From a virus (lineage: Duplodnaviria > Heunggongvirae > Uroviricota > Caudoviricetes), in the IMG/VR virus record IMGVR_UViG_3300032731_000668, positions 64,001 to 128,000 of that record: a stretch of DNA of 64,000 bases; one strand, given 5' to 3'. The notes beneath the pieces are model-generated. The model saw nothing but the letters and a program-made list of their open reading frames with translations, had not been told where the DNA came from and searched no databases. Both the position numbers and the translations under genes were made by a program. Below are positions 3,396 to 30,206 of the stretch, in pieces; the first letter of the stretch is position 1; every line of letters begins with the position of its first letter.

Positions 3396-3881
3396 ATGAA
3401 AATTGTTTTTGGTTTATTGGTTGTGGCAATGGTTATGTTTGCTGGATGTGAAAGCCAACAGACGACTGACCAAGGAGTAGTTGTTGACTCAAAATATGAC
3501 TCTAATTTGTACACGGTTACATTAGAAGCCGATGATTTAACAAGTCATGAGAATTTTAATTTATCGGGAAGTATGTCTATGGTAAATGGTTTTGGCACAG
3601 GAAGTGTGAGTGCATGGACTGATGGCAAAGGAATTCTAAGGGGAAGGCTTTTAGATATTTCTCCCGAATTAGTTGGTTTTAGCGTTAGCGATACCATTAT
3701 TGTGAAGACAACCGATTTAAAAGTAAAAATGATAAAAGATGGAGACGTTATAATTTTGAAATGTGTTTCAGATTATGAGCCAGTTATCAGTCAAAATCAA
3801 GACACAACCGTTGCGCAACAATATGAATTGTGGGAATTAGATTATTGCCGACTTGTGAAGATCAAAAAAGCTGCAGAATGA
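3396..3881 (+). CDS. Putative lipoprotein
   Basis: Hydrophobic signal peptide ending in lipobox MFAGC; SD AAGGAG. Confidence 0.7.
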   Translation: MKIVFGLLVVAMVMFAGCESQQTTDQGVVVDSKYDSNLYTVTLEADDLTSHENFNLSGSMSMVNGFGTGSVSAWTDGKGILRGRLLDISPELVGFSVSDTIIVKTTDLKVKMIKDGDVIILKCVSDYEPVISQNQDTTVAQQYELWELDYCRLVKIKKAAE

Positions 3882-3890
3882 AAAATAAAA

Positions 3891-3920
3891 TTTTGGGTGG
3901 CGCATAAGCGCCATCCAAAA
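3891..3920. terminator. Intrinsic terminator-like hairpin
   Basis: ttttgggtggcgc-ataa-gcgccatccaaaa with T/A tracts on both sides. Confidence 0.75.
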
Positions 3921-3949
3921 CCACATAAAATGAAGGTTTTATGAGGTTT
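3917..3949. repeat. Palindrome copy AAAACCACATAAAA-tgaagg-TTTTATGAGGTTT
   Basis: Direct read; follows a terminator hairpin and precedes an SD. Confidence 0.9.
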
Positions 3950-4154
3950 AAAAAAGGAGAAATATGAAAAAATCTAAGTTCAATTTGACAGAAAAAGAAG
4001 TTGATGAATTGCTAACAAGTAGACCTAGCATGTTTAATGCAGGAATGCTTTTAGACCTAAAAAGAATGTACGATTTATTTCATTATGTTTTAAATACGCT
4101 TGAAAAAGAACATGGAATAAAATTAGAGGTTGACGGAATAAATAATTAGCACCC

Positions 4155-4183
4155 TTGACAAAATAACAATTATATGGTATTAT
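4155..4183 (+). promoter_or_regulatory. Sigma70/A promoter driving the RNA unit and the 617-aa gene
   Basis: TTGACA-N17-TATTAT with TG at 4175-4176; predicted start about 4190. Confidence 0.9.
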
Positions 4184-4189
4184 TATGTT

Positions 4190-4246
4190 GGGCAAAAGAA
4201 GTTCCTTTACAAAATTTTCTATTAAAAAATAATTTACTTCTCGCCC
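4190..4246 (+). ncRNA. UUCCUU-bulge hairpin module, copy 1
   Basis: GGGC/GCCC stem, AAA-over-C loop, AGAAG/CUUCU helix, UUCCUU bulge, UA/UA pair. Confidence 0.8.
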
Positions 4247-4250
4247 TCGT

Positions 4251-4362
4251 GGGAAAGTAGCTCAGTGGGAGAGCGTCGGCATTATTACTGTTCGCCGAAA
4301 AGCACAAACAGTTCCTTTACAATTGGAGCCGAGAGTCGTTGGTTCGAATCCAACCTTTCCTA
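4251..4362 (+). ncRNA. tRNA-like RNA with a 47-nt structured insert replacing the anticodon loop
   Basis: Acceptor GGGAAAG/CTTTCCT, D arm GCTC-agtggga-GAGC, anticodon stem TCGGC/GCCGA, T arm GTTGG-TTCGAAT-CCAAC; insert at 4281-4327. Confidence 0.88.
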
Positions 4363-4365
4363 ATA

Positions 4366-4424
4366 AATGGCAAAAGACGTTCCTTTAAAATACAATGCTA
4401 ATGTTTTACGTCTCGCCATTTTTT
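4366..4424 (+). ncRNA. UUCCUU-bulge hairpin module, copy 3, followed by U6 (terminator/attenuator-like)
   Basis: AAUGGC/GCCAUU, AAA-over-C, AGACG/CGUCU (compensatory change versus copy 1), UUCCUU bulge, UAAAA/UUUUA. Confidence 0.8.
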
Positions 4425-4443
4425 ATAAAAAACAGGAGATAAA

Positions 4444-6297
4444 ATGAATAAAGCAACTTTAAGATTGTTCAATGCTATTCAAGTAGAACGAAAAACCCAA
4501 GGTTACGGAAACGCCCACAAGAAGAGGTGTATATCTAATGGCTATATTCTCAGTCATTCTATTGATCCAAAGGAAAATACTCTAGAAGAAATTGAAAACA
4601 TTATCGGTATTTCTGGCGAGAAAGCGAATGCTTCTTTCCATAAGTCATGGAAGATTGTCCGTGATTCTGACATGGAAGTTTTGGTTATCCAACAAATTCT
4701 TCATTATTTTACTACTTATGGATTTGAATCTCTTGGTATTTATAATGAGAATACTGTTTATGTTCCCAATGAAGTTTTAAAAATTCCAAAAATCAAAGAC
4801 GGTATTTCTTTAGTGTTCATTAAGGCAATGACTTCTCAAGAAATCTTAGATGCAATATTGGTCTTGGGCGCAGGCATTGCTTTGGCAAAAACTACATTGA
4901 ACGATATAATGACTGTCGTAGAATCAAATAAATATAACAGTGATTTTGTCGAAAAAATAAACAACCGTGAATTAAAAACACGCCTTTATGAATTTTATGA
5001 TATTGTACCTGCTGAACCTGTAGAATATCTACGATATGTTATTCAGCAAATTACCAACGAGTCTTTGTTGATCAAGAATGATTATCTTATCAGTATGATT
5101 AAAGCATCGGAAGGAAAATTTCTAGATCATCTTCTAAAGAAAGCGCCAAAGGATTTAGCAAGTATTTTCTTTAGATATAAGCCTTTGTTTCTTGCAATGA
5201 AATCGATTAGTAAAAACAAGAATTTCTTTAATCGTTTACGAAAAGACGCGAATAAAATGCATATTCCTATGCCAACCGATTATCTCAACAATATTACTTC
5301 ACAAATTAAAGAAGGCAAACTAGATATAGAGAGGCTAGAACATCGATTGGTAGATGCAAGTATATTTAGGAAGATAAGACTTGCCTATGCTTTGAGCCAT
5401 CGAATTAATAGCGGAAATAGTATTGTGTATAAAGTTCGTAATGGGCGAGGATGGGTTACAGATTTTGAATGGCACAAGAATTTTGGGATGGCGACTGAAT
5501 CTGCGTTTAGTGTTGTTTTGAAATCTATTGCTGAAAATATACGAAAAAACGTAGGCGGAAAAACTTTTTATATTCCTGACAATATTCATTACGCTTTACC
5601 CTCAACGGAAAAACAATTCATTGGAAATTTGCCCTCTAACACCTATGCTACTGTTCCTAATGATATGATTATTGGAGTTCATTGGACAAATACGAATAGA
5701 AGAATCGATTTAGATTTCTCTATGATACAACAATCTGGTAAATTTGGATGGGATGCAGGATATCGTCAGGGAAACGATGTTTTATTTTCTGGTGATTTAG
5801 TAGATGCTCCTAAACCAAATGGCGCATCGGAATTGTTCTATATGTCTGAAGCACAAGAAGAAGCAAAAATTTTGATGTTAAATTATTTCAATTTTAATGC
5901 AGATGATAAAGTAGTATTTAAATTTTTTGTTGCAAATGAGAAGACAAAAAAGTTAGACAAAAATTATATGGTTAGTCCAAATAACATAATTTTATCATGT
6001 AATGTAGAAACAGATCAGAAACAAATGATTTTAGGATTAGTTGTTTCTGTAGACGGGGAAAACCGACTATATTTTTCAAATACCAGTATTGGAAATTCAA
6101 TTACGTCTGGAGCAAATGAAATATCTACAAAAGCTAGAAATTTTATGGTCGCTAGCTGTGTGGGTGCTATAAACTTAGAAATTATTTTGGCTATGGCAGG
6201 TGCAGATATTGTTTCTGAAAAACCAGAAGAAGAGTACATTGACTTATCACCCGAAGCATTGGATAAAACAACTATTATTGATTTGTTCCAAGGATAA
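4444..6297 (+). CDS. 617-aa uncharacterised protein with a possible TerD-like C-terminal domain
   Basis: Long ORF with SD AGGAG; C-terminal GVHW..RIDLDFS..GWD..LFSGDLVDAP..GASE pattern resembles TerD-like domains (pattern recall, not searched). Confidence 0.6.
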   Translation: MNKATLRLFNAIQVERKTQGYGNAHKKRCISNGYILSHSIDPKENTLEEIENIIGISGEKANASFHKSWKIVRDSDMEVLVIQQILHYFTTYGFESLGIYNENTVYVPNEVLKIPKIKDGISLVFIKAMTSQEILDAILVLGAGIALAKTTLNDIMTVVESNKYNSDFVEKINNRELKTRLYEFYDIVPAEPVEYLRYVIQQITNESLLIKNDYLISMIKASEGKFLDHLLKKAPKDLASIFFRYKPLFLAMKSISKNKNFFNRLRKDANKMHIPMPTDYLNNITSQIKEGKLDIERLEHRLVDASIFRKIRLAYALSHRINSGNSIVYKVRNGRGWVTDFEWHKNFGMATESAFSVVLKSIAENIRKNVGGKTFYIPDNIHYALPSTEKQFIGNLPSNTYATVPNDMIIGVHWTNTNRRIDLDFSMIQQSGKFGWDAGYRQGNDVLFSGDLVDAPKPNGASELFYMSEAQEEAKILMLNYFNFNADDKVVFKFFVANEKTKKLDKNYMVSPNNIILSCNVETDQKQMILGLVVSVDGENRLYFSNTSIGNSITSGANEISTKARNFMVASCVGAINLEIILAMAGADIVSEKPEEEYIDLSPEALDKTTIIDLFQG

Positions 6298-6301
6298 TAA
6301 A

Positions 6302-6547
6302 ATGTCTTGGAACTATAGAATAATTAAACAGGACGGTTGCTTTGGCATTCGAGATGTATATTATGACAAACAAGGAAGAATGCAATTAGTGGCTGTAGAA
6401 GATCAACCTCCTCATGGAACAACATTAGAGGCACTTAAAACCGATATGGGATATTTCAAAGAAGCATTTAATAAACCAGTTGTTAATTATGAAGACATTC
6501 CCGAAGATGATGCTGACATGTCTATGTATAATAGGAAGGTGGAATAA
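6302..6547 (+). CDS. Hypothetical phage protein (MSWNYRII...)
   Basis: ATG at 6302 just after the upstream stop; the longer ORF call overlaps the 617-aa gene. Confidence 0.65.
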   Translation: MSWNYRIIKQDGCFGIRDVYYDKQGRMQLVAVEDQPPHGTTLEALKTDMGYFKEAFNKPVVNYEDIPEDDADMSMYNRKVE

Positions 6548-8086
6548 AATTTTGGATTATACTCAATGTTTATTAATTAAATATGGCAATGTCATAACTA
6601 TTGGTAGACATATTAATCCATCTATTTATTTAGATTAGATAGAGTAATTAAAGGAGCTTAACATGAAAGATAGAATACAGAATGAACTTGAGAGTGCAAA
6701 TAAACAAGCCAATCTTTATAGAACCAAATGGCTTATAGCCCACAATACTTTGCACGCTCTTGTTCACGAAGAAAATCAAGAGATACAAAATAAGGATGGA
6801 GCAAAGAAATATTTTACGGAGTATCTGTGTGAATTGGAAAATGCGCCTAAGATTGCATTATTACCAGCTTAGAACATGTAAACAGATACATCGCATTTAT
6901 CTGCTTGTTCAAAGGCAGTACTATTACCACATGAGGAGATAAAAATGAAACCCAAAATCTCAATCGCACAGCAAATACTTTTACAAGCAGTCTTAATCGC
7001 AGTTGGAATATTCTTGGTAGTTAATAGTAGTCTTACAGGGGGTATAATAGGATTTGGCATGATTGGTATAGCGGCATTAGTTCCCATTATTATGCCAATG
7101 AATAAATCCAATTAATGCTCATACAATCTTGATAGAATACCAATACTACCTTTGATGGTCATTGGAATGATGGATGGATAGTTCAAGAAGTCTATAGTTC
7201 TGAAAGCGAGCAATATATTTTAAAGCACGAAAGAGATTGGGCAAAACAAAGAGAGGCAAGCGATATATGAAAAAATTTCCTGATTGGGAAGGCAAAGAGT
7301 ATGGCGGAGATTTTGCATGCGAAGATCCTACCTGTGAAGTTACTTGCGAATGTGGCCATGGATTAAACGAAAAAGGCATATTATGGGTTAGTGACTATGA
7401 GATAGTTCGTTGTCCTGAATGTGGACGTGGATATAAAACGGAGTTTGTTGTTTGGCAATTTGAGAAGGGTGAAACATAATATAATAAAACTATATGTAGT
7501 AACTATGTATCGATATGGAGATAGGCAAAAACATTCTTATATTTTGGGCGTTTGGGATACCGAAGAAGAAGCAAATTTATTTGCAAAAACAGAAGAATCC
7601 TACAGGGGATATCCTAAATATATAGCAGAAATATTACCTGTTGAATTAAATAAAGAACTTTATGGTAATGAAAAAATACAAACCTAATAAAATGAGGATA
7701 TTATGAATATCGCGGAAGTGAATACGATAAGAAAACTAAGTAGACAAGTATCTGAAAGTTCTGATGTGCGTACAATTGTCGCTGCAAGCGAACAATTAAT
7801 TGAGGCTTCGCGCAAAATTAGGGAAAGATACCAAGAAAAAGAAAATAAAAAAAATCTAAATGCACACAAAGCAATTCAAAAAATTAATGAAGTCATTGAT
7901 AATCGGTATATTCTTGGTGACTCAAAGAAATTAGATAAGATTATAGATATAGTTGGAAAATTAAATAAAGAAGAATAAATATATACAATAAAACGAGGAT
8001 TTTATGGGGTATATTTTATATACATATATTAACTCGTATGCGTTAATAACCAGATATTAAAAACACCATAATTGGAGTAAATAAAA

Positions 8087-9331
8087 ATGAATTTAAATAA
8101 AAGCTTCGCCGAAGAATTTGACAAGATTTGTCAAGAAGAAGCAACAATGATGAAAAATATAAAGAGCATAAGGAAATATATCGGAGAACTTCCTCCATTG
8201 ACTAATTTGAACGTATGCAAAAAACTTGAGGACGAACATCTGCGTATGTATGAATACACAACACTATTGGCAAATACTTATATGAAATTATCTCAACTTT
8301 ATCATTATACTAGATTAATAAATGAACAAATTTTAGACGATCAAAACATAATAAAATATTTTATCACCAAAGGAGAAAGTAATTTGAATAAAAAAATAAT
8401 AGTATTTCTTGTTGCATTTATGTTGATTGGTTGTGTTCCTACCACAAAGGTTGAAATAGCGCCAACAGAAATTATTGCAGCCCCGACAATGAAACCAACG
8501 ATAAAACCAACACCGACAATAGAACCAACCTCAATTGTAGACGACAATTATTATGGACAATTGACACCAGAACCTATAACATTAAACATATATGATCATC
8601 CATATTACTGTGATAAATTAGGTGACCCACATAAAGTAAATGGGTATTATTATAATGATCCTGATTGGATACAGTTTTGTAGACGAGAAGAATACTTTTG
8701 GATTCCAGGACTTTTAACATACGAATCTCAATTTATGAGAATGCCTGATTTAGTTATAGGAAAAGTTTATGGATATGAAGCAAATTTGATGGAACATACT
8801 GCTATGTTTCATGAATTGAACATAGACAATGTAAGAGATGGTATAACTCTTCCATTCTGTTCTGAGATTGGAGGTTACGCTTGGGTAAAGCGCCCATATA
8901 ATCCTGACATAGCTGGCACAGGAGAGTGGGAAGGGCCATTCAGAGTAGTTGATTGTGCTGGCGTATTAGACCTATATAATGTTGTTGTCAGGCGCAAAGA
9001 AGTGGCGGAGGTAGGATTTCAAACCGCTGTAGATTGGGGTATGGTGAAAGATCTAAATCAAACGGGTGAATTGACTTGGAATAAATTTTGGGATATGCGA
9101 AGCTGGTATACAGACATAATGGTATCAAAAATTGACCCAAAGTATCTACCCGATGATTTAGAACCGATTGTATTAGCGGATTGGTTTGCGGAAAGAGCAA
9201 CTTTTTATGAGACACAAGAGGAATGGGATAATGCCTATAAACCGCTACCTAAAACATTTGATCAAGTACAAAAGTGGCGATTTGAACCCAACGGTGAATG
9301 GGTGATGTTTGACTTAAACGAGATAGAATAA
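8087..9331 (+). CDS. Apparent in-frame fusion of a ~100-aa ORF and a lipoprotein starting at TTG 8384
   Basis: Internal SD GGAG plus TTG, then signal peptide MNKKIIVFLVAFMLIGC and PT-rich linker. Confidence 0.65.
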   Translation: MNLNKSFAEEFDKICQEEATMMKNIKSIRKYIGELPPLTNLNVCKKLEDEHLRMYEYTTLLANTYMKLSQLYHYTRLINEQILDDQNIIKYFITKGESNLNKKIIVFLVAFMLIGCVPTTKVEIAPTEIIAAPTMKPTIKPTPTIEPTSIVDDNYYGQLTPEPITLNIYDHPYYCDKLGDPHKVNGYYYNDPDWIQFCRREEYFWIPGLLTYESQFMRMPDLVIGKVYGYEANLMEHTAMFHELNIDNVRDGITLPFCSEIGGYAWVKRPYNPDIAGTGEWEGPFRVVDCAGVLDLYNVVVRRKEVAEVGFQTAVDWGMVKDLNQTGELTWNKFWDMRSWYTDIMVSKIDPKYLPDDLEPIVLADWFAERATFYETQEEWDNAYKPLPKTFDQVQKWRFEPNGEWVMFDLNEIE

Positions 9332-9345
9332 AAAAGGAGATAAGA

Positions 9346-9903
9346 GTGAAGAAACTATTGGTTTTTATATTGATGTTATGCATATTAATTGGATGTACCC
9401 CGAATACAGATATTGAAGTTGAAAATACGGCGTCAGAAACAGAATTATCTACGGCAGAATTGCCACGGTTTAAAGGTTTTGAATACCTTGAGGATGGTGG
9501 TTTGGCTATTTATACGCCGCCTTCGGCTGAAATCTTTTTTGTTATTGATGCCAATACGATATGGTTAGAGTCAGATCTTAGTGAACAAACACTTCTTGTG
9601 CACCGAGGAGAAGAAACGATAGATATGTTTTCTATTTCGTCTGGATTGCCGGCAACTCCAACTCCAACAGGATCATATAGGGTTTACAAAATGCAAACAG
9701 AGCATACTATGTGGTTAGATAACGTAGCGTATGATACGCCATGGATGATGTTTTTTCATCATGATTATGCAATTCATTCTGCTAATTGGCACGATAGTTT
9801 TGGCGAACCAATGAGTCTTGGTTGTATCAATATGTTTGTAGACGAAGCACGAGAAATTTATTATCAAGTTGAAATAGGAACACATATATATATTCATGAA
9901 TAA
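9346..9903 (+). CDS. L,D-transpeptidase (YkuD family) lipoprotein
   Basis: Lipobox LIGC; ISSGLPATPTPTGSY; catalytic AIHSANWH...SLGCINM. Confidence 0.88.
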   Translation: MKKLLVFILMLCILIGCTPNTDIEVENTASETELSTAELPRFKGFEYLEDGGLAIYTPPSAEIFFVIDANTIWLESDLSEQTLLVHRGEETIDMFSISSGLPATPTPTGSYRVYKMQTEHTMWLDNVAYDTPWMMFFHHDYAIHSANWHDSFGEPMSLGCINMFVDEAREIYYQVEIGTHIYIHE

Positions 9904-13244: not shown

Positions 13245-13988
13245 ATGAGAGCAGAAAGTTCTTTTGGAAGACAAAAATATAATCTATTCAGAAATTTAGA
13301 TACTGCAACAATAATGGTAATGAGGGAATCCAATGCTATAATTGCAGGTGGTGCAGTAAGATCTGTTTTTGCTGGCGAACATATATCTGACTATGATCTT
13401 TATTTTGATAGTGAAAAAGACTTGCGAATTATGCAGGAATATTTAGATGAAAATTTTAAAAAAGTTTTTACTTCTCCAAACGCTATATCATATAAAAAAG
13501 ATAAAATATGTATTCAATTAATAATTATGCCAGAACTTATAGGATTAGGTTGTGATAAACTATTAGAAGGATTTGATTTCACAATTTGTATGGGCGCATT
13601 TAGTATGAAGGAAGACAGATTTTATCATAATGAAGATTTCTTAATAGACTTAAGCGAAAAAAGACTTGTGTTTAACATTAAGGCAAAATATCCTATGGCA
13701 TCCATGTATCGTGTTTTAAAATATATAAAGAAGGGCTATAAGATATCTGGTTTAGAGATAGTGAAAATTAGTCTATCAATACATAATTTAAAAATGAACA
13801 GCTATAAAGATCTTCGAAAACAATTAATGGGAATCGATACTCTTTTTCTAAAAGAACTTACAGACAGTCTATTATCAAAAGACAAAGATGATTTAGAGTA
13901 TGATTTTGATGATTTTATGGATATTTTTAATGGTTATTGTTATGATCAAATAAATGTGGCTTGGGGTACACATGACGAAATCATTTAA
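13245..13988 (+). CDS. Nucleotidyltransferase (poly(A) polymerase/CCA head-like)
   Basis: IAGGAVRSVF..ISDYDLYF and FDFTICM motifs. Confidence 0.78.
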   Translation: MRAESSFGRQKYNLFRNLDTATIMVMRESNAIIAGGAVRSVFAGEHISDYDLYFDSEKDLRIMQEYLDENFKKVFTSPNAISYKKDKICIQLIIMPELIGLGCDKLLEGFDFTICMGAFSMKEDRFYHNEDFLIDLSEKRLVFNIKAKYPMASMYRVLKYIKKGYKISGLEIVKISLSIHNLKMNSYKDLRKQLMGIDTLFLKELTDSLLSKDKDDLEYDFDDFMDIFNGYCYDQINVAWGTHDEII

Positions 13989-14895
13989 TCCAGAAAACTA
14001 TAGAATCTTTGAATGTTTGACGGGGAGTATTCTATATGGTACAAACACGCCAGAGTCAGACGAAGATTTTCGCGGAATTTGTCTTCCGCCCATGGAAGTA
14101 CTTTTAGATCCTTTCGTGAATTTCGAACAGAAAAATTCTGGTTTTAAAGAAGAAGATAGAACCATTTATGATCTTGGTAAATTTATGAAATTATGCGCAG
14201 GTGGAAATCCAAATATTTTGGAGCTTTTGTTTTGTCCAGAATCAAATATAGTTTATAAAACTTCCGCATGGGATAGAATAGTCGAAAATAAAAACTTATT
14301 TTTAAGTAAAAAAGTTAAATATACGTTCAGCGGTTATTCATTTTCACAATTGCAAAAAATAAAAAATCATAGGAAATGGTTCATAGATCCACCAAAAGAT
14401 AAACCTCATAGAAAAGATTTTGGTCTTACAGATAAACCAATTGTGTCTGGAATGAATTTAGAAAATTCTTTAAATATGCCAATGGAATTATTTAAGGAAA
14501 AATATGTTGATGAACTAAAAAGAGAAAGAGAATATAGGAACGAAAAAAAGAAATGGGATAATTATGTTTCATGGCGCGACAATAGAAATCCTCAACGAAA
14601 AGAATTAGAAGATAAATATTCCTATGACGCAAAACATGCATCACATCTTGTTCGATTGATGACAGAAGGTAAAGAGTTACTTTTAGATCAGACAATAACA
14701 TTTCCACTTAAAAATGCTGAAGAGATTCGTGCTATAAAAAATGGAAAATATACTTACGAAGAAATTATTGAAATGGCAGAAACATTTGACAAAGAATTCG
14801 AAGTGTGGTATGATTTATCAACGTTGCCAAATAGTCCTGATAAGAAGGGATTGAAAAAATTATATTTGGAAATAGTAGAAGAATATGCAAAATAA
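13972..14895 (+). CDS. Pol-beta-superfamily nucleotidyltransferase (RlaP/YcgL-like phage family)
   Basis: GSILYGTNTPESDEDFRGI, NPNILELLF, YDAKHASHLVRL. Confidence 0.85.
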   Translation: MTKSFNPENYRIFECLTGSILYGTNTPESDEDFRGICLPPMEVLLDPFVNFEQKNSGFKEEDRTIYDLGKFMKLCAGGNPNILELLFCPESNIVYKTSAWDRIVENKNLFLSKKVKYTFSGYSFSQLQKIKNHRKWFIDPPKDKPHRKDFGLTDKPIVSGMNLENSLNMPMELFKEKYVDELKREREYRNEKKKWDNYVSWRDNRNPQRKELEDKYSYDAKHASHLVRLMTEGKELLLDQTITFPLKNAEEIRAIKNGKYTYEEIIEMAETFDKEFEVWYDLSTLPNSPDKKGLKKLYLEIVEEYAK

Positions 14896-15487
14896 AAAAG
14901 AATTAACTGGACAAAGATTTGGCAAATTAATGGTTGTTGGCCCGTCTGAATTACGCAGTAAGAGCGGATCAATTCAATGGGAATGCCAATGTGATTGCGG
15001 GACAAAAAAATTGTATTCGTCTTACCAATTATTAAGACGAAGTGTTGTTTCATGTGGTTGCTGGCGAAAAGAAAGATTAACAACACATGGTAAAAAACAC
15101 ACGAGAATTTACGGTATTTGGGGGAATATGAAAAATCGTTGTTGTAATAAAAATAATCCGCAGTATAAAGATTATGGTGGAAGAAAAATTTATGTATGCG
15201 GAGAATGGCAAAACAGTTTTGAAACTTTTTATGATTGGAGTATGGAAAATGGTTATGCCGATAATTTATGTATTGATAGAATTGATAATAATGATAGCTA
15301 TAGCCCCGATAATTGCAGATGGACAAATAATTATGTGCAGGCAAATAATAAAAGAAATACAGTTTTTGTCACAATAAATGGAGAAACGCATTCATTACAC
15401 GAATGGTGTATAATAAAAAATAAGAATTATGGCACAGTATATAGCAGGCATTGGCGAGGGTGGAGTGATGATAAATTATTTAATTAA
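14885..15487 (+). CDS. HNH-like homing endonuclease
   Basis: CQCDCG..SCGC; MKNRC..YKDYGGRKIYVC.EW; IDRIDN..YSPDNCRW..QANN. Confidence 0.85.
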   Translation: MQNKKELTGQRFGKLMVVGPSELRSKSGSIQWECQCDCGTKKLYSSYQLLRRSVVSCGCWRKERLTTHGKKHTRIYGIWGNMKNRCCNKNNPQYKDYGGRKIYVCGEWQNSFETFYDWSMENGYADNLCIDRIDNNDSYSPDNCRWTNNYVQANNKRNTVFVTINGETHSLHEWCIIKNKNYGTVYSRHWRGWSDDKLFN

Positions 15488-16811
15488 ATTGCATCCAAAT
15501 GTAAAAAAAATATTAAATATTTTATATAAAAATAATTTTAAAGGATATATAGTTGGAGGCGCGATCCGCGACGGCCTATTAAGAAGACGTCCTGCCGATT
15601 ATGATATCTGCACCAATGCCCTTCCTGAAGATGTTATAAGGATGTTCTCTAAATATACTGTTGTACCAACTGGGTTGAAACACGGAACTGTTTCTATAAT
15701 AATTGAAGGATGTACATATGAAGTTAGCACATTTAGATCAGACGGTGATTATTCGGATAATCGTCATCCAGATAGCGTAAACTTTATTGAAGACATAGAG
15801 GAAGATTTGTCACGCAGAGATTTTACCATCAATGCTATGGCGTACAATGAAAAAGAAGGGTTGATAGATCCTTATGGCGGACAGATTGACTTAAAAAATA
15901 AAATAATAAACTGCGTCGGCGATCCAAATCTAAGAATTCAAGAAGACGCTCTTAGAATGTTAAGGGCGATTAGGTTTGCTTCACAACTTGGATTTAAGAT
16001 TGGTGATGTTTGGTTTTCAATAAAAGAAAATAAGAATCTTATTTCTAATGTATCTGCAGAAAGAATTAGAGATGAATTAAATAAAATTTTGTTATCCGAT
16101 AATTCAGAAATGATTGCGAAGTTATATCTTGTAGGACTATTAGATATTATTCTTCCTGAATTATCTGCGTGTTTTGGCGTTGATCAAAAAAATAAAAATC
16201 ATATTTATGATGTGGGTGAACATATAATTAATACAATTAAATATACACCCAACAATTTAATTTTAAGATTGTCTGCAATGTTGCACGATATAGGAAAGCC
16301 CAGAACAATGACTGTTGGACCAGATGGCGTTGGGCATTTTTATAGACATGAAGATGTGTCATGCGATATGGCTAGAGAAATTTTACAAAGACTAAAGTAT
16401 GATAATCATACAATTGAAGAAGTTTGTTTGTTGGTAAGAACTCACATGAATTCTATTCCTGCCACTAAAAGAACCGTCAGAAGATTGCTAAGTCAGATTG
16501 GCAAAGAAAGAATGATGACTTGGTGTGCATTAAAAGATGCAGATGCGAAAGCACGAAAAGAATCTAAGTATCTTTCTATGAAAAGCAAAATAGATCGAGC
16601 CATTGAATTATATAATCAAGTTATAGCCGAAGACGAATGTTTTAGTTTAAAAGATCTTGCCATAAATGGCGATGACTTAAAAAATATTGGCTATGAAGAA
16701 GGCAAAGAAATTGGGAAAGTTTTAAAATCTTGTTTAAAAATGGTTATAGAAGATGCCGAGAAAAATAATAAAGAATATTTATTAGAGTATGTAAACCAGA
16801 TAAAACGCTGA
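15468..16811 (+). CDS. cca: CCA-adding tRNA nucleotidyltransferase with HD domain
   Basis: VGGAIRD..DYDI, DLSRRDFTINAMA, EDALRMLRAIRF, VSAERIRDEL, LHDIGKP. Confidence 0.93.
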   Translation: MINYLIKLHPNVKKILNILYKNNFKGYIVGGAIRDGLLRRRPADYDICTNALPEDVIRMFSKYTVVPTGLKHGTVSIIIEGCTYEVSTFRSDGDYSDNRHPDSVNFIEDIEEDLSRRDFTINAMAYNEKEGLIDPYGGQIDLKNKIINCVGDPNLRIQEDALRMLRAIRFASQLGFKIGDVWFSIKENKNLISNVSAERIRDELNKILLSDNSEMIAKLYLVGLLDIILPELSACFGVDQKNKNHIYDVGEHIINTIKYTPNNLILRLSAMLHDIGKPRTMTVGPDGVGHFYRHEDVSCDMAREILQRLKYDNHTIEEVCLLVRTHMNSIPATKRTVRRLLSQIGKERMMTWCALKDADAKARKESKYLSMKSKIDRAIELYNQVIAEDECFSLKDLAINGDDLKNIGYEEGKEIGKVLKSCLKMVIEDAEKNNKEYLLEYVNQIKR

Positions 16812-19217: not shown

Positions 19218-19300
19218 GGATGCGATGCCCGACTGGAAGGGCGTCGGACTGTAACTCCGGTATTCGATTGAGTATGTGAGTTCGAACCTCACCGCATCCA
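19218..19300 (+). tRNA. tRNA-Tyr(GTA), no encoded CCA
   Basis: GGATGCG/CGCATCC, D arm GCCC/GGGC, loop CT-GTA-AC, long variable arm, T arm GTGAG-TTCGAAC-CTCAC. Confidence 0.93.
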
Positions 19301-19301
19301 C

Positions 19302-19528: not shown

Positions 19529-19635
19529 GGGCAGGCGGTGTGGCAGGGAACACACAAATAAAGTACTTCTGTTACTCGGCAAACAATTTGCTCGGTCTCA
19601 ATACAGACGATCAGGTTCGAATCCTGACCTACCCA
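19529..19635 (+). ncRNA. tRNA-like RNA with enlarged anticodon arm and long variable arm
   Basis: GGGCAGG/CCTACCC, D arm GTGT/ACAC, CAAAT/ATTTG enclosing 26 nt, T arm TCAGG-TTCGAAT-CCTGA. Confidence 0.75.
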
Positions 19636-22305: not shown

Positions 22306-22989
22306 ATGAAGTCTCACAAATATGGGGTTTACAAAATATTAAACTTATCTGACCGAAAAAGATATTACGGTGGCGGAATTTTAAAGGCACGAAAGCTATA
22401 TCATTTTAATCTATTGAGAATTAATAAACATGATAACTCTAATCTTCAAAAAGCATATAATTTAAGCGAAGAAGAAAACTTTAAATTTATTGTTCTATTA
22501 TATTGTGAGCCTTTTGAATTAACTCGCTATGAGCAATTTTTCGTAGATAAATATAAAAAATCTAAATTACTATATAATATTTGTATAGATAATGTTGAAA
22601 ATAAATCTGGTGTTAAAACATCCCAAAAAACAAAAGAAAAAATATCTAAAACATCGAAGGGCAGAATCTTTTCTCCTGAGACTAGAAAAAAGATTTCAGA
22701 AGCGGTAAAAGGTAAAAACAGTCCTATGTATGGAAGGTTTGGAAAGAATCATCCTAGGTATGGAAAACCTCATACTTTAGAGACGATTAAAAAATTATCG
22801 GGCATAAATCATTATAATATCACAAAGAAGAATGTCATATTGGATATAGCCAAAATGTTAAAAGAAGGCTGTTCCGTAAAAAATATTACAACCACATTAA
22901 ATGTTGGCAGAAAGGTTGTCTATGGCGTTAAGAATGGATTTTATAATAATATATATGATTTAAAAAATACCGACTATTTAAAAAAATAA
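22306..22989 (+). CDS. GIY-YIG homing endonuclease
   Basis: GVYKILN..YYGGG, RYEQ, NUMOD3-like repeats, VKNGFYNNIYDL. Confidence 0.85.
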   Translation: MKSHKYGVYKILNLSDRKRYYGGGILKARKLYHFNLLRINKHDNSNLQKAYNLSEEENFKFIVLLYCEPFELTRYEQFFVDKYKKSKLLYNICIDNVENKSGVKTSQKTKEKISKTSKGRIFSPETRKKISEAVKGKNSPMYGRFGKNHPRYGKPHTLETIKKLSGINHYNITKKNVILDIAKMLKEGCSVKNITTTLNVGRKVVYGVKNGFYNNIYDLKNTDYLKK

Positions 22990-23449: not shown

Positions 23450-25516
23450 ATGAAAGTAATATCGTCAGAAAGAATGCCAATTAAAATGTGGCTTGAAAAT
23501 ATTGAGGATGGCGCATTGTCACAAGCAAAAGACATTGCCAATTTGCCATTTGTTTTTAAGCACATTGCTATCATGCCCGATAGTCATCAGGGCTATGGAA
23601 TGCCTATTGGTGGCGTAATGGCTACAAAAGGCGTAATCGTACCTAATGCCGTTGGGGTTGATATTGGCTGTCTTGATAAAAATACAGAGTTTCTTACGCA
23701 AAGTGGCTGGCAAAAAATTAGTGATTATCAAAAGGGCGACAATATTTTACAATACAATAAAGAGACAAATATAGCTTCTTACGTAAGTCCTATCGCATAT
23801 ATTGTAAAACCTTGTGATACGTTTTTTCATTTTAAGAATAGCAAGGGTTTAGATCAGATGGTAAGCGAAGAACACAAAATGTTGATTTGGAAGGGATATA
23901 AGACAAGAGGTTATAATTTAGAAGATATTGGTCCAATAGAATTATCTAGTAAAGGAAAATCTCTTTCCAAAGGATTTTATGGTTTTAAAGCGTCTTTTAA
24001 TTTGGCTAATGGATTTGGTGTTGATATGACGAACGATGAAATAAGACTAGATATAATGATAACCGCAGATGGATGTATAAAACATTCAAAAGAAAATACC
24101 CATCAGATTTATTTGCACTTTAAAAAAGTTCGAAAAATAAAAAGAGCAAAAGAATTATTGACAAGAAACAATATTTTTTATAAAGAAACCGCAGGCAAAG
24201 ATGGATCAACACACATGTATTTTTTTGTTGATAAAAAATATTCAAAAAATTTGTCAAAATATTGGTTGGCAAATAGAAGCCAACTAAAAGTCATATCTGA
24301 AGAATGTCTGTTGTGGGACGGACATGTTGGATATCGTCCTTATTTTTCATCCACCGACAAAGAAAGTGCTGATTTAATTCAGTTTGCATTTTCTTCTGTT
24401 GATATAAGAGCAGGTATATGTACGGTAAATTCAAAAAATCCTGCTCATAAAACTATATATTTTGTTACTCCGACAAGAAACAATATAGTTGGAATAAATG
24501 TTGCTCCAACCATAGTAAAGTCTAAAGATAAAAAAAAGTATTGCTTTACTGTTCCAAGCGGTTATTTTGTTGCAAGACGGAATGGAAAGATTTTTATAAC
24601 AGGAAATTGTGGTATGATGGCAGTAAGAACAAGTCTAACCGATATTTCGACCGATCGAATAAAACAAATTATGGGCGAAATACGCAAAGTTATTCCAGTT
24701 GGTTTTAAACATAATAAAACCGCTCAGTCTTGGGAAGGATTTAGTCGTGCGCCCGATATTTCCATAATTCAAAACCAATTAACCTCCGCAAGAAAGCAAT
24801 TAGGCACACTCGGCTCGGGCAACCATTTTGTAGAAATACAAAAAGGTGATGACGGACACATATGGATAATGCTTCACTCCGGTAGCCGAAATTTTGGTCT
24901 AAAGGTAGCCTCTGAATATCATAAAAAAGCTAAGTTTCTATGTGAAAAATGGTATTCTAGTGTTCCAAAGGATCTTGCCTTTCTTCCAATAGAAAGCCCT
25001 GAAGGAAAAGAATATTACGAAGCCATGAACTATGCTTTAGAATTTGCACAAGCAAGCAGAGATTTGATCATGGAAAAAATTCTTGACAATATTGAAACAA
25101 ATGTATTGGAGACAGTCAATATCCATCATAATTTTGCAGCGTTCGAACACCATTTTGGTAAAGATGTTTTGGTCCACCGGAAAGGCGCAACAAGAGCCTA
25201 TAAAGGCGAGATAGGCATTATTCCTGGCTCAATGGGAACAAGTAGTTACATTGTTGAAGGACTAGGAAATCCCGACAGTTTTATGTCCTGTTCTCATGGT
25301 GCAGGTAGGCGTATGGGGCGCGGTCAAGCAAAAAGAACATTGTCCCTAGTAGAAGAACAAGAGAAAATGGAAGGCGTTGTTCACGGCTTGCGGACGTCCG
25401 ATGATTTAGATGAAGCACCAGGCGCATACAAAGATATTGATGTAGTCATGGAAGATCAAAAAGACCTTGTAAAAATATTGGTAAAACTAACTCCATTAGC
25501 AAGTATAAAAGGATAA
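23450..25516 (+). CDS. rtcB: RtcB RNA ligase, intein-containing
   Basis: MPDSHQGYGMPIGG, VGVDIG|CG, LGTLGSGNHFVE, LHSGSR, HHNF, HRKGAT, HGAGR, DEAPGAYK. Confidence 0.95.
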   Translation: MKVISSERMPIKMWLENIEDGALSQAKDIANLPFVFKHIAIMPDSHQGYGMPIGGVMATKGVIVPNAVGVDIGCLDKNTEFLTQSGWQKISDYQKGDNILQYNKETNIASYVSPIAYIVKPCDTFFHFKNSKGLDQMVSEEHKMLIWKGYKTRGYNLEDIGPIELSSKGKSLSKGFYGFKASFNLANGFGVDMTNDEIRLDIMITADGCIKHSKENTHQIYLHFKKVRKIKRAKELLTRNNIFYKETAGKDGSTHMYFFVDKKYSKNLSKYWLANRSQLKVISEECLLWDGHVGYRPYFSSTDKESADLIQFAFSSVDIRAGICTVNSKNPAHKTIYFVTPTRNNIVGINVAPTIVKSKDKKKYCFTVPSGYFVARRNGKIFITGNCGMMAVRTSLTDISTDRIKQIMGEIRKVIPVGFKHNKTAQSWEGFSRAPDISIIQNQLTSARKQLGTLGSGNHFVEIQKGDDGHIWIMLHSGSRNFGLKVASEYHKKAKFLCEKWYSSVPKDLAFLPIESPEGKEYYEAMNYALEFAQASRDLIMEKILDNIETNVLETVNIHHNFAAFEHHFGKDVLVHRKGATRAYKGEIGIIPGSMGTSSYIVEGLGNPDSFMSCSHGAGRRMGRGQAKRTLSLVEEQEKMEGVVHGLRTSDDLDEAPGAYKDIDVVMEDQKDLVKILVKLTPLASIKG
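23669..24607 (+). mobile_element. Intein (313 aa) in RtcB with LAGLIDADG-like region
   Basis: Begins CLDKNTEFLT after VDIG, ends ..FITGN before CG; YCFTVPSG block F. Confidence 0.92.
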
Positions 25517-30134: not shown

Positions 30135-30206
30135 ACAGATATGGTGCCAACAGTAACATAGGTGTTTACCAAACATCGGGTATGGATTCAAATTCCATTA
30201 TCCGCT
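30135..30206 (+). pseudogene. Decayed tRNA-Gly-like gene, anticodon ACC
   Basis: Acceptor ACAGATA/TATCCGC (two mismatches versus GCGGATA), loop TT-ACC-AA, T arm ATGGA-TTCAAAT-TCCAT, U73. Confidence 0.65.

Follow-up and report, generated by a model that had tools for sequence, protein, structure and literature searches.

The closest described counterparts of the locus reported here are the Ro60 protein and its Y RNAs. Among the latter, the YrlA RNAs carry a conserved Ro-binding motif, GNCGAAN0-1G, near the 5' end, possess a closed acceptor stem and end in the Ro-binding stem, and YrlA of M. smegmatis is cleaved by RNase P and supplied with CCA (PMC4201824). We analyzed a 64,000-nucleotide (nt) stretch from the genome of a large aquatic phage of the Caudoviricetes (the window; positions 64,001 to 128,000 of IMG/VR record IMGVR_UViG_3300032731_000668), in which positions 4155-6297 comprise two hairpins, a tRNA-shaped RNA between them, and the gene of a 617-amino-acid (aa) protein. 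An initial annotation of this locus had proposed that the three RNA elements share one protein-binding-like module, present in circularly permuted form within the tRNA body, and had compared it to Ro60/Y-RNA particles. The module is referred to as the handle in the following. On the basis of homologous sequences we consider it probable, at roughly 60%, that the handle is part of a protein-bound RNA acting in trans, which in this phage would be carried on a processed tRNA scaffold.

In its plan, the locus can reasonably be likened to Ro60/Y RNA: in both cases the gene of a large protein, built of helical repeats and a C-terminal domain of metal-binding type, stands beside those of its own small RNAs, each RNA would combine a protein-binding bulged helix with a variable or tRNA-like part, and the pair is linked to rtcB and found in phages. 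Membership in the Ro60/TROVE or YrlA families, in contrast, did not hold up. The C-terminal domain of the 617-aa protein is TerD-like and not a vWA domain with MIDAS, no sequence match to Pfam TROVE (PF05731) was obtained for 22 members of the protein family at E ≤ 1, and the RNA topology is the reverse of that of YrlA, with an open acceptor end and the handle at the tip of the anticodon arm. Rfam searches (positions 3900-4700 at E ≤ 10, the whole window at gathering score) returned tRNA as the sole relevant match and no YrlA; the other four matches at E ≤ 10 score far below their gathering scores. The GNCGAAN0-1G motif is absent from positions 4185-4430, and the nearest string, GCCGAAAAG in the cap loop, neither fits it nor is conserved in the alignment of tRNA-shaped homologues described below (A3). 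No TROVE gene was found in the 168-kb phage genome, and a single borderline match in five cellular genomes; as Ro60 is rare anyway, its absence from genomes says little.

The handle module and its tRNA-borne form

For comparative analysis, 48 loci encoding relatives of the 617-aa protein were fetched, 46 of which include the 5' end of the gene. The handle measures approximately 30 nt and consists of a GC stem, an internal loop with A-N-A over C, a 6-base-pair (bp) helix and a single-stranded UCCU...U edge. In an alignment of 54 hairpin copies, chosen by a rule requiring pairing, the G of the outer stem, the A-N-A opposite a single C, UUCCU and UA are invariant, while pairing at 11 base pairs is kept in 98% of cells and 141 cells have both partners exchanged, a result reached in 0 of 500 shuffles. 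Because these copies had been picked by a pairing rule, the selection was repeated blind to pairing, using the unpaired letters alone; of the 82 sequences thus obtained, 42 have perfectly complementary 5-bp helices, as opposed to 7.4 after shuffling, and the helix occurs in 22 sequence variants. Purines predominate in its 5' strand with few exceptions. The invariant closing pair joins the A of UA to the first U of UUCCU, extending the helix to 6 bp, and UCCU forms the 5' margin of the variable loop or junction; the UA/UA pair and the UUCCUU bulge of the initial annotation were revised to this effect, the former not being conserved.

A covariance model built from the hairpin form (R1) was used to scan loci and genomes. 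It detected 84 copies in the 48 loci, up to four per locus, all on the strand of the gene and nearly all within 300 nt upstream of it. Judged from these sequences, the handle is the constant part and its loop-side payload is free to vary, and this freedom allows circular permutation to be tolerated. Payloads seen include plain loops, a whole tRNA, and a tRNA body joined by its anticodon arm. The whole tRNA is found in a viral locus (L035, 5625-5744), where the handle loop holds a complete 73-nt tRNA-like gene with CCA. The anticodon loop of this inner tRNA apparently has 6 nt, and tRNA processing would leave its handle as two base-paired halves.

In the window, the promoter, hairpins, tRNA body, U6 tract and open reading frame (ORF) given in the initial annotation were all recovered at their places with R1, Rfam, the ORF list and a promoter scan; all lie on the plus strand, and the three RNA elements fit within 235 nt. 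A sigma-70-type promoter-like site at 4155-4183 (TTGACA, 17-nt spacer, TG, TATTAT; 11/12 matches), identified by consensus match only, is the top-scoring site within 3800-6700, and its predicted transcript start coincides with the foot of hairpin 1. Similar -10 boxes lie 7-20 nt ahead of the first hairpin in three other loci (L016, L032, L045). Hairpin 1 (4189-4247; R1 59.2 bits, E 2.5e-14) is composed of a GGGC/GCCC stem, an AAA over C internal loop, the helix AGAAG-U/A-CUUCU, the UCCU...U edge and an AT-rich 28-nt loop, and its minimum free energy (MFE) fold is the module (z -2.96). The second copy (4286-4316) resides in the anticodon loop of the tRNA-shaped RNA (4251-4362) and is circularly permuted, reading UA-CUGUU-C-GC-(CGAAAA cap)-GC-ACA-AACAG-UUCCU, with the tRNA body attached at the side which in the hairpin form is the variable loop. 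Hairpin 3 (4367-4419; R1 52.9 bits, fold z -2.69) is composed of AUGGC/GCCAU, AAA over C and AGACG-U/A-CGUCU and ends 25 nt before the start codon. It is directly followed by a U6 tract (4419-4424), a possible weak or regulated terminator, although the terminator scan did not call hairpin 3 with U6 since the loop is too long. The Shine-Dalgarno sequence AGGAGA (4434-4439), read from the sequence, is placed 4 nt before the ATG of the ORF of 617 codons (4444-6297), whose product is the presumed binding partner of the handle.

Both hairpins thus follow the scheme GGC / AAA / 5 bp / UUCCU ... UA / 5 bp / C / GCC, and the insert in the tRNA rebuilds it with swapped strands, as initially annotated; the three copies have three different helices, all of which pair (AGAAG/CUUCU, AACAG/CUGUU and AGACG/CGUCU). 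No fourth copy was found, either in the window or in the complete virus record of 168,212 bp, where R1 gives two hairpin matches, and a blastn search of positions 4100-6400 against 50,697 phage records yielded no match. The hairpin loops were also considered as guides and dismissed, the rest of the 168-kb genome giving merely AT-rich chance matches of up to 13 nt.

The tRNA-shaped RNA at 4251-4362 has a 7-bp acceptor stem, a D arm, a T arm, a 5-bp anticodon stem (4276-4280 with 4328-4332) enclosing the 47-nt loop (4281-4327), and a discriminator A, without an encoded CCA; the elbow nucleotides typical of tRNAs are likewise present. It matches Rfam tRNA (RF00005) with 56.6 bits (E 1.9e-11; gathering score 29) and approximately 43 inserted bases; ARAGORN did not call it. 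An alignment of 22 distinct chimeras of this kind (A3) was assembled by selection on the acceptor and T stems alone, so that the results for the module helix, the anticodon stem and the tertiary pair 15:48 are independent of the selection. RNAalifold, run without hints, returned the acceptor, D and T stems together with the module helix and the GC stem. Over the full structure 97% of cells are paired, and both partners have changed in 19 of its 30 pairs; all arms covary, and the module helix, which had not been used in selection, is 97% paired with 4 covarying pairs. The Levitt pair 15:48 is G:C in 12 chimeras, A:U in nine and otherwise in one. From this conservation the chimera should fold as a real L-shaped tRNA. 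CCA is encoded right after the discriminator in 9 of 25 chimeras, mainly from gammaproteobacteria, which on sequence evidence points to tRNA-type end maturation. The alignment contains neither a conserved anticodon-like triplet nor a conserved 7-nt loop on either side of the module, and the flanking linkers vary in length and sequence. Two handle modules follow each other within one anticodon arm in L007 (5752-5925) and L050 (9736-9900), and two or three chimeras stand in tandem in L010, L014 and L021. Between its two modules, L007 has an extra T-arm-like hairpin. In the MFE fold of the window's chimera, UCC within UUCCU is paired to a GGA further downstream; this pairing was rejected, as it is not conserved in A3.

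Replacement of the anticodon loop by another RNA has an engineered counterpart in the 'tRNA scaffold' reportedly introduced by Ponchon and Dardel in 2007 for recombinant RNA expression, in which the RNA of interest takes the place of the anticodon loop and the chimera is said to be folded, processed and stabilized by the cell like a tRNA. By sequence, the arrangement here is the same; it differs in that the chimera is natural, conserved across phyla and, as far as the comparison of loci indicates, partnered with a specific protein.

The 617-aa protein family and its association with the handle

Searches with the 617-aa protein gave nothing meaningful in Pfam, PHROGs, NCBIfam, PADLOC or the sequences of the PDB. 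The AlphaFold model has two parts, N-terminal helical repeats (approximately residues 1-375; predicted local distance difference test (pLDDT) 85 when folded alone) and a C-terminal TerD-like beta sandwich. The latter resembles the solved TerD structures 2kxt, 2qng and 3ibz with Foldseek probabilities of 0.93-0.98 and template-modelling (TM) scores of 0.42-0.46 by target, and AFDB clusters named 'TerD family protein' are matched at E values of 7e-15 to 1e-10; at the level of sequence, the 22 family members have no match to Pfam TerD (PF02342). Four invariant residues, D422, D424, D451 and E463, are located in the sandwich and are candidates for the acidic calcium-binding motifs of TerD. Over its whole length, an ESM Atlas model resembles the MXAN_6230/SCO0854 RING + TerD family (NF041916) with a TM score of 0.72 by query. 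This likeness concerns the overall predicted fold only, as opposed to a sequence score of 16.4 bits against a cut-off of 600 and the lack of a RING domain by Pfam in the 617-aa protein. For the N-terminal domain, Foldseek against the PDB and Swiss-Prot models retrieved generic helical repeats alone, with no Ro60 listed. VIA-align gave Ro60 (1yvp_A) as the longest alignment of its list, at Z 6.5, 169 aligned residues and a root-mean-square deviation of 8.9, which is too weak to be used for a helical-repeat protein. Of the two families named at the outset for structural comparison, TerD was thus recovered in the C-terminal sandwich, and TROVE was not detected beyond this weak alignment.

More than 1,380 homologues of 40-87% identity are contained in one database, and a second one has 1,406 cluster representatives (more than 1,400 clusters at 50% identity). 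The family extends over at least nine bacterial phyla and many viral contigs and large phages. Loci from the genome collection stem from Cyanobacteria, Desulfobacterota, Chloroflexota, Gammaproteobacteria, Alphaproteobacteria, Planctomycetota, Verrucomicrobiota/Lentisphaerota, Bacteroidota/Ignavibacteriota and Spirochaetota, with products that share 46-60% identity with the phage protein. In two cyanobacterial loci (L003, 1-335; L031, 1-343), the sequence just upstream of the gene resembles the end of a TnpB-type gene of an insertion sequence element; the tRNA chimera is missing in both, and the gene of L031 is truncated at residue 28.

A handle hairpin or chimera is found upstream of the gene in 45 of the 46 loci that hold its 5' end, the exception being L026, in which the sole copy lies 12 nt past the stop codon. 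Since the module precedes the homologous gene in nearly all loci and covaries strongly, its threefold occurrence in the window is more than chance, and the initial proposal that the three elements represent one protein-associated module, one of them permuted within a tRNA body and all tied genetically to the 617-aa protein, was supported by the upstream comparison and the covariance model it had called for; homologous genes that generally lack the module, or a module devoid of covariation, were not what was observed.

Within the sequences searched, the handle co-occurs with one protein family at the level of both locus and genome. In five cellular genomes of 4-12.5 Mb, R1 matches at the locus only, and among 121 genomes of one order module and protein occur together in a single one and are both absent from the other 120. 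When viral contigs were scanned with a pattern ignoring pairing, 148 matches were obtained, 110 of them with a perfect helix; the gene is directly downstream of 75 of these and nearby in 5, and 9 have too little flanking sequence to judge. None of 24 poorly pairing control matches has the gene. The remaining 21 perfect-helix matches, here termed orphan handles, are mostly real and located inside phage tRNA gene arrays on the strand of the tRNAs: handle hairpins stand among 5-25 tRNA genes of the same strand in L067, L097, L098, L111, L117, L127, L141, L142 and L162. Two of the 21 (L075, L116) were discarded as chance matches inside a repetitive coding region. Some of the handle loops in tRNA arrays hold small hairpins, one with the D-arm-like sequence AGCUCGUAGAGCA. 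Four records with orphan handles were examined for the protein; both complete jumbo-phage records (424 kb and 416 kb) encode a family member elsewhere, and the other two, being 5-9% fragments, cannot be judged. Handles far from the gene cannot serve as its leader, which favors an RNA acting in trans.

Proposed action in trans and competing explanations

The alternative that survives best, which we nevertheless regard as unlikely, is that of a leader acting in cis only, with the hairpins as operator or attenuator sites by which the protein or another factor governs synthesis of the protein, the tRNA as a device for processing and stability (tRNA punctuation), and a protein whose job is unrelated to the RNAs. 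Precedents are the operator hairpins of phage translational repressors (the MS2 coat protein hairpin, T4 RegA) and the autoregulatory leaders of ribosomal proteins. As in these operators, a small bulged hairpin, presumably bound by the downstream product, keeps a short and constant spacing to the start codon; for 23 of 25 loci this spacing, counted from the end of the last hairpin, amounts to 19-37 nt (median 25). Runs of at least four T follow 8 of 25 last hairpins and 1 of 33 other hairpins, all copies at the loci are on the strand of the gene, and hairpins also precede neighboring genes in three loci (L001, L016, L034). Different from such operators, however, the ribosome-binding site (RBS) lies outside the hairpin, and there are several copies, some far from the gene or inside tRNAs. 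A leader would not account for the handles in phage tRNA arrays whose genomes encode the protein elsewhere, for up to four copies per locus, for a handle kept in a fully tRNA-shaped, CCA-ended RNA, or for the sole copy located after the gene in L026. Gammaproteobacterial loci, moreover, contain chimeric tRNAs only and no RBS-proximal hairpin, so that an operator role cannot be general. Of the autoregulation by flanking hairpins and attenuator that had originally been envisaged, the placement of the last hairpin ahead of the start codon is borne out; a general attenuator is not, because a U tract of at least four follows just 8 of 25 last hairpins.

A second explanation, which we consider improbable, is a pair resembling type III toxin-antitoxin systems (ToxIN, CptIN, TenpIN), or an abortive-infection or anti-defense pair, in which the RNAs restrain a harmful or effector protein that RNA damage, infection or another trigger would release. 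The likeness lies in the tandem structured RNAs that share a transcript with the gene directly downstream, in some loci with an intervening U tract, and in the complex expected of RNA and protein; the sporadic distribution, suggestive of horizontal spread (one genome among 121 of one order), and the frequency of the pair in phages are also in keeping with it. The copies, however, are not near-identical repeats, as their helix sequences and loop lengths differ within a locus and each is individually maintained, and the 617-aa protein has no endoribonuclease fold, no PADLOC match and no nuclease or toxin fold among its structure matches. Its size and its identity of 46-60% to sequences from different phyla likewise speak against a toxin, as does its presence in large lytic-type phages beside tRNA and repair genes.

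Of similarly low probability is the proposal that the tRNA-shaped RNA, held by the protein, lures tRNA-targeting nucleases or tRNA-modifying enzymes as a decoy or bait. Its tRNA body is intact and conserved, the tRNA-repair genes of the phage suggest pressure from tRNA-damaging enzymes, and in other loci the handle carries tRNA-like parts of other kinds. Known anticodon nucleases target the anticodon loop, and exactly this loop is missing from the chimera at 4251-4362 and replaced by linkers variable in length and sequence, which makes the decoy against anticodon nucleases put forward in the initial annotation a weak idea; many loci, moreover, have handles and no tRNA part. A real decoding tRNA with a spliced-out intron, finally, is very improbable in spite of the complete cloverleaf, the high tRNA score and the CCA ends encoded in some lineages, given that, as read from the alignments, the insert is the same conserved module as in the flanking hairpins, lacks a conserved anticodon or 7-nt loop on either side and has variable linkers, falls far short of a group I intron in length and matches no Rfam intron family, and is present twice in one arm in L007 and L050.

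Several observations also weigh against the preferred explanation, a protein-bound handle RNA acting in trans. The 617-aa protein contains no recognized RNA-binding or catalytic domain, and kinship among the loci inflates the shuffle-based statistics given above. The gammaproteobacterial loci without RBS-proximal hairpin count here as well as against the cis leader. Handle hairpins are further found ahead of other genes, in L016 (1523-1640, before a DUF4419 gene), L034 (4456-4602, before a 75-aa ORF) and L001 (4793-4841, before a 147-aa zf_Tbcl treble-clef protein adjoining RtcB), and these suit a regulatory site as well as an RNA gene. RNA-repair genes lie within 6 kb of the pair in just about five distinct loci of 48, and cellular loci such as L049, L050 and L055 have unrelated neighbors. 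As a separate observation, both hairpin pairs of L016 are preceded by near-identical GCTATAAT boxes.

With respect to the literature, no description of an RNA partner was found for the TerD or MXAN_6230/SCO0854 families, and no publication on the handle RNA or the 617-aa protein was found in a search that did not cover Burroughs and Aravind 2016 (RNA repair systems). A 2026 preprint on bacterial tRNA mimics covers the skipping-rope, DUF2693-FD and salivarius-1 RNAs, not the handle RNA.

Genomic neighborhood, proposed mechanism and implications

In agreement with the initial annotation, the phage encodes RtcB and a CCA-adding enzyme, and in addition an RlaP-family nucleotidyltransferase. All three are situated 9-21 kb downstream of the 617-aa gene within the window, RlaP at 13954-14895, the CCA-adding enzyme with HD domain at 15429-16811, and a 688-aa RtcB RNA ligase ORF at 23450-25516. 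In other loci such genes stand beside the pair: RtcB within 6 kb in L001, L010 and L028, and CCA-adding enzyme plus RlaP 2-6 kb downstream in the viral L038 and in the near-identical viral pair L043/L044. A universal neighbor was not found, as clustering of 1,243 flanking ORFs gave no cluster common to more than three loci.

The RtcB match of the window covers residues 368-688 only, with a weak LAGLIDADG_3 match at 203-278, and the ORF looks like one with an intein or homing-endonuclease insertion. A homing-endonuclease-type gene with GIY-YIG, NUMOD3 and HTH domains is present at 2229-2831 and a second NUMOD3 protein is encoded at 22306-22989; in L033 and L046, the homologous locus is preceded by a relative of the former. 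In L001, a Desulfobacterales locus with RtcB, a 550-aa HEAT-repeat protein (7981-9633) is encoded directly downstream of the homologous gene. With regard to other tRNA-related elements of the window, a putative tRNA-like RNA with an enlarged anticodon arm at 19529-19635 has no Rfam match at E ≤ 1 and no handle module, a weak Rfam tRNA match at 30135-30206 (33.4 bits) was missed by ARAGORN, and a tRNA-Tyr at 19218-19301 scores 32.5 bits in Rfam.

For the handle RNA acting in trans, we propose the following course of events. One transcript starting at hairpin 1 would carry the three handle copies. Each handle would very probably be recognized by the helical and TerD-like 617-aa protein, whether presented as a plain hairpin or inside out at the tip of a tRNA anticodon arm. 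It is likely, with less assurance than for recognition, that RNase P, 3' processing and CCA addition excise the tRNA body from the leader, and the same cuts would generate a stable handle RNA on a tRNA scaffold, hairpin 1 in free form, and an mRNA with hairpin 3 at its start. Protein bound to this RBS-proximal copy might then lower translation, and the U6 tract may add termination, resulting in a feedback control to which we give slightly less than an even chance.

The job of the particle is the weakest step and a reasoned guess. A role in controlling tRNA or RNA damage, tentatively in the conflict between phage and host, is suggested by the handles in tRNA arrays, by the tRNAs carried as payload and by the repair genes; in this role the tRNA body could dock the CCA-adding enzyme, RtcB and RlaP, by analogy to Y RNAs tethering partners to Ro60. 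The pair would then represent a second, independently evolved particle of the Ro60/Y-RNA type, with a permutable handle, that recruits or gates these tRNA-repair enzymes when tRNAs come under attack during infection; this proposal, too, we hold only tentatively.

If the protein binds the handle, the two would form a widespread RNA-protein particle listed in no catalogue searched. The handle also accounts for certain 'odd tRNAs' whose anticodon arms are enlarged and which tRNA finders miss or miscall. In its permutable form it is a precedent from nature for RNAs on a tRNA scaffold, and together with a cognate protein it could find use as a compact RNA tag. Such a particle would realize the plan of Ro60 and Y RNA for a second time and would offer a direct way to test the surveillance of tRNA integrity in cells and phages.

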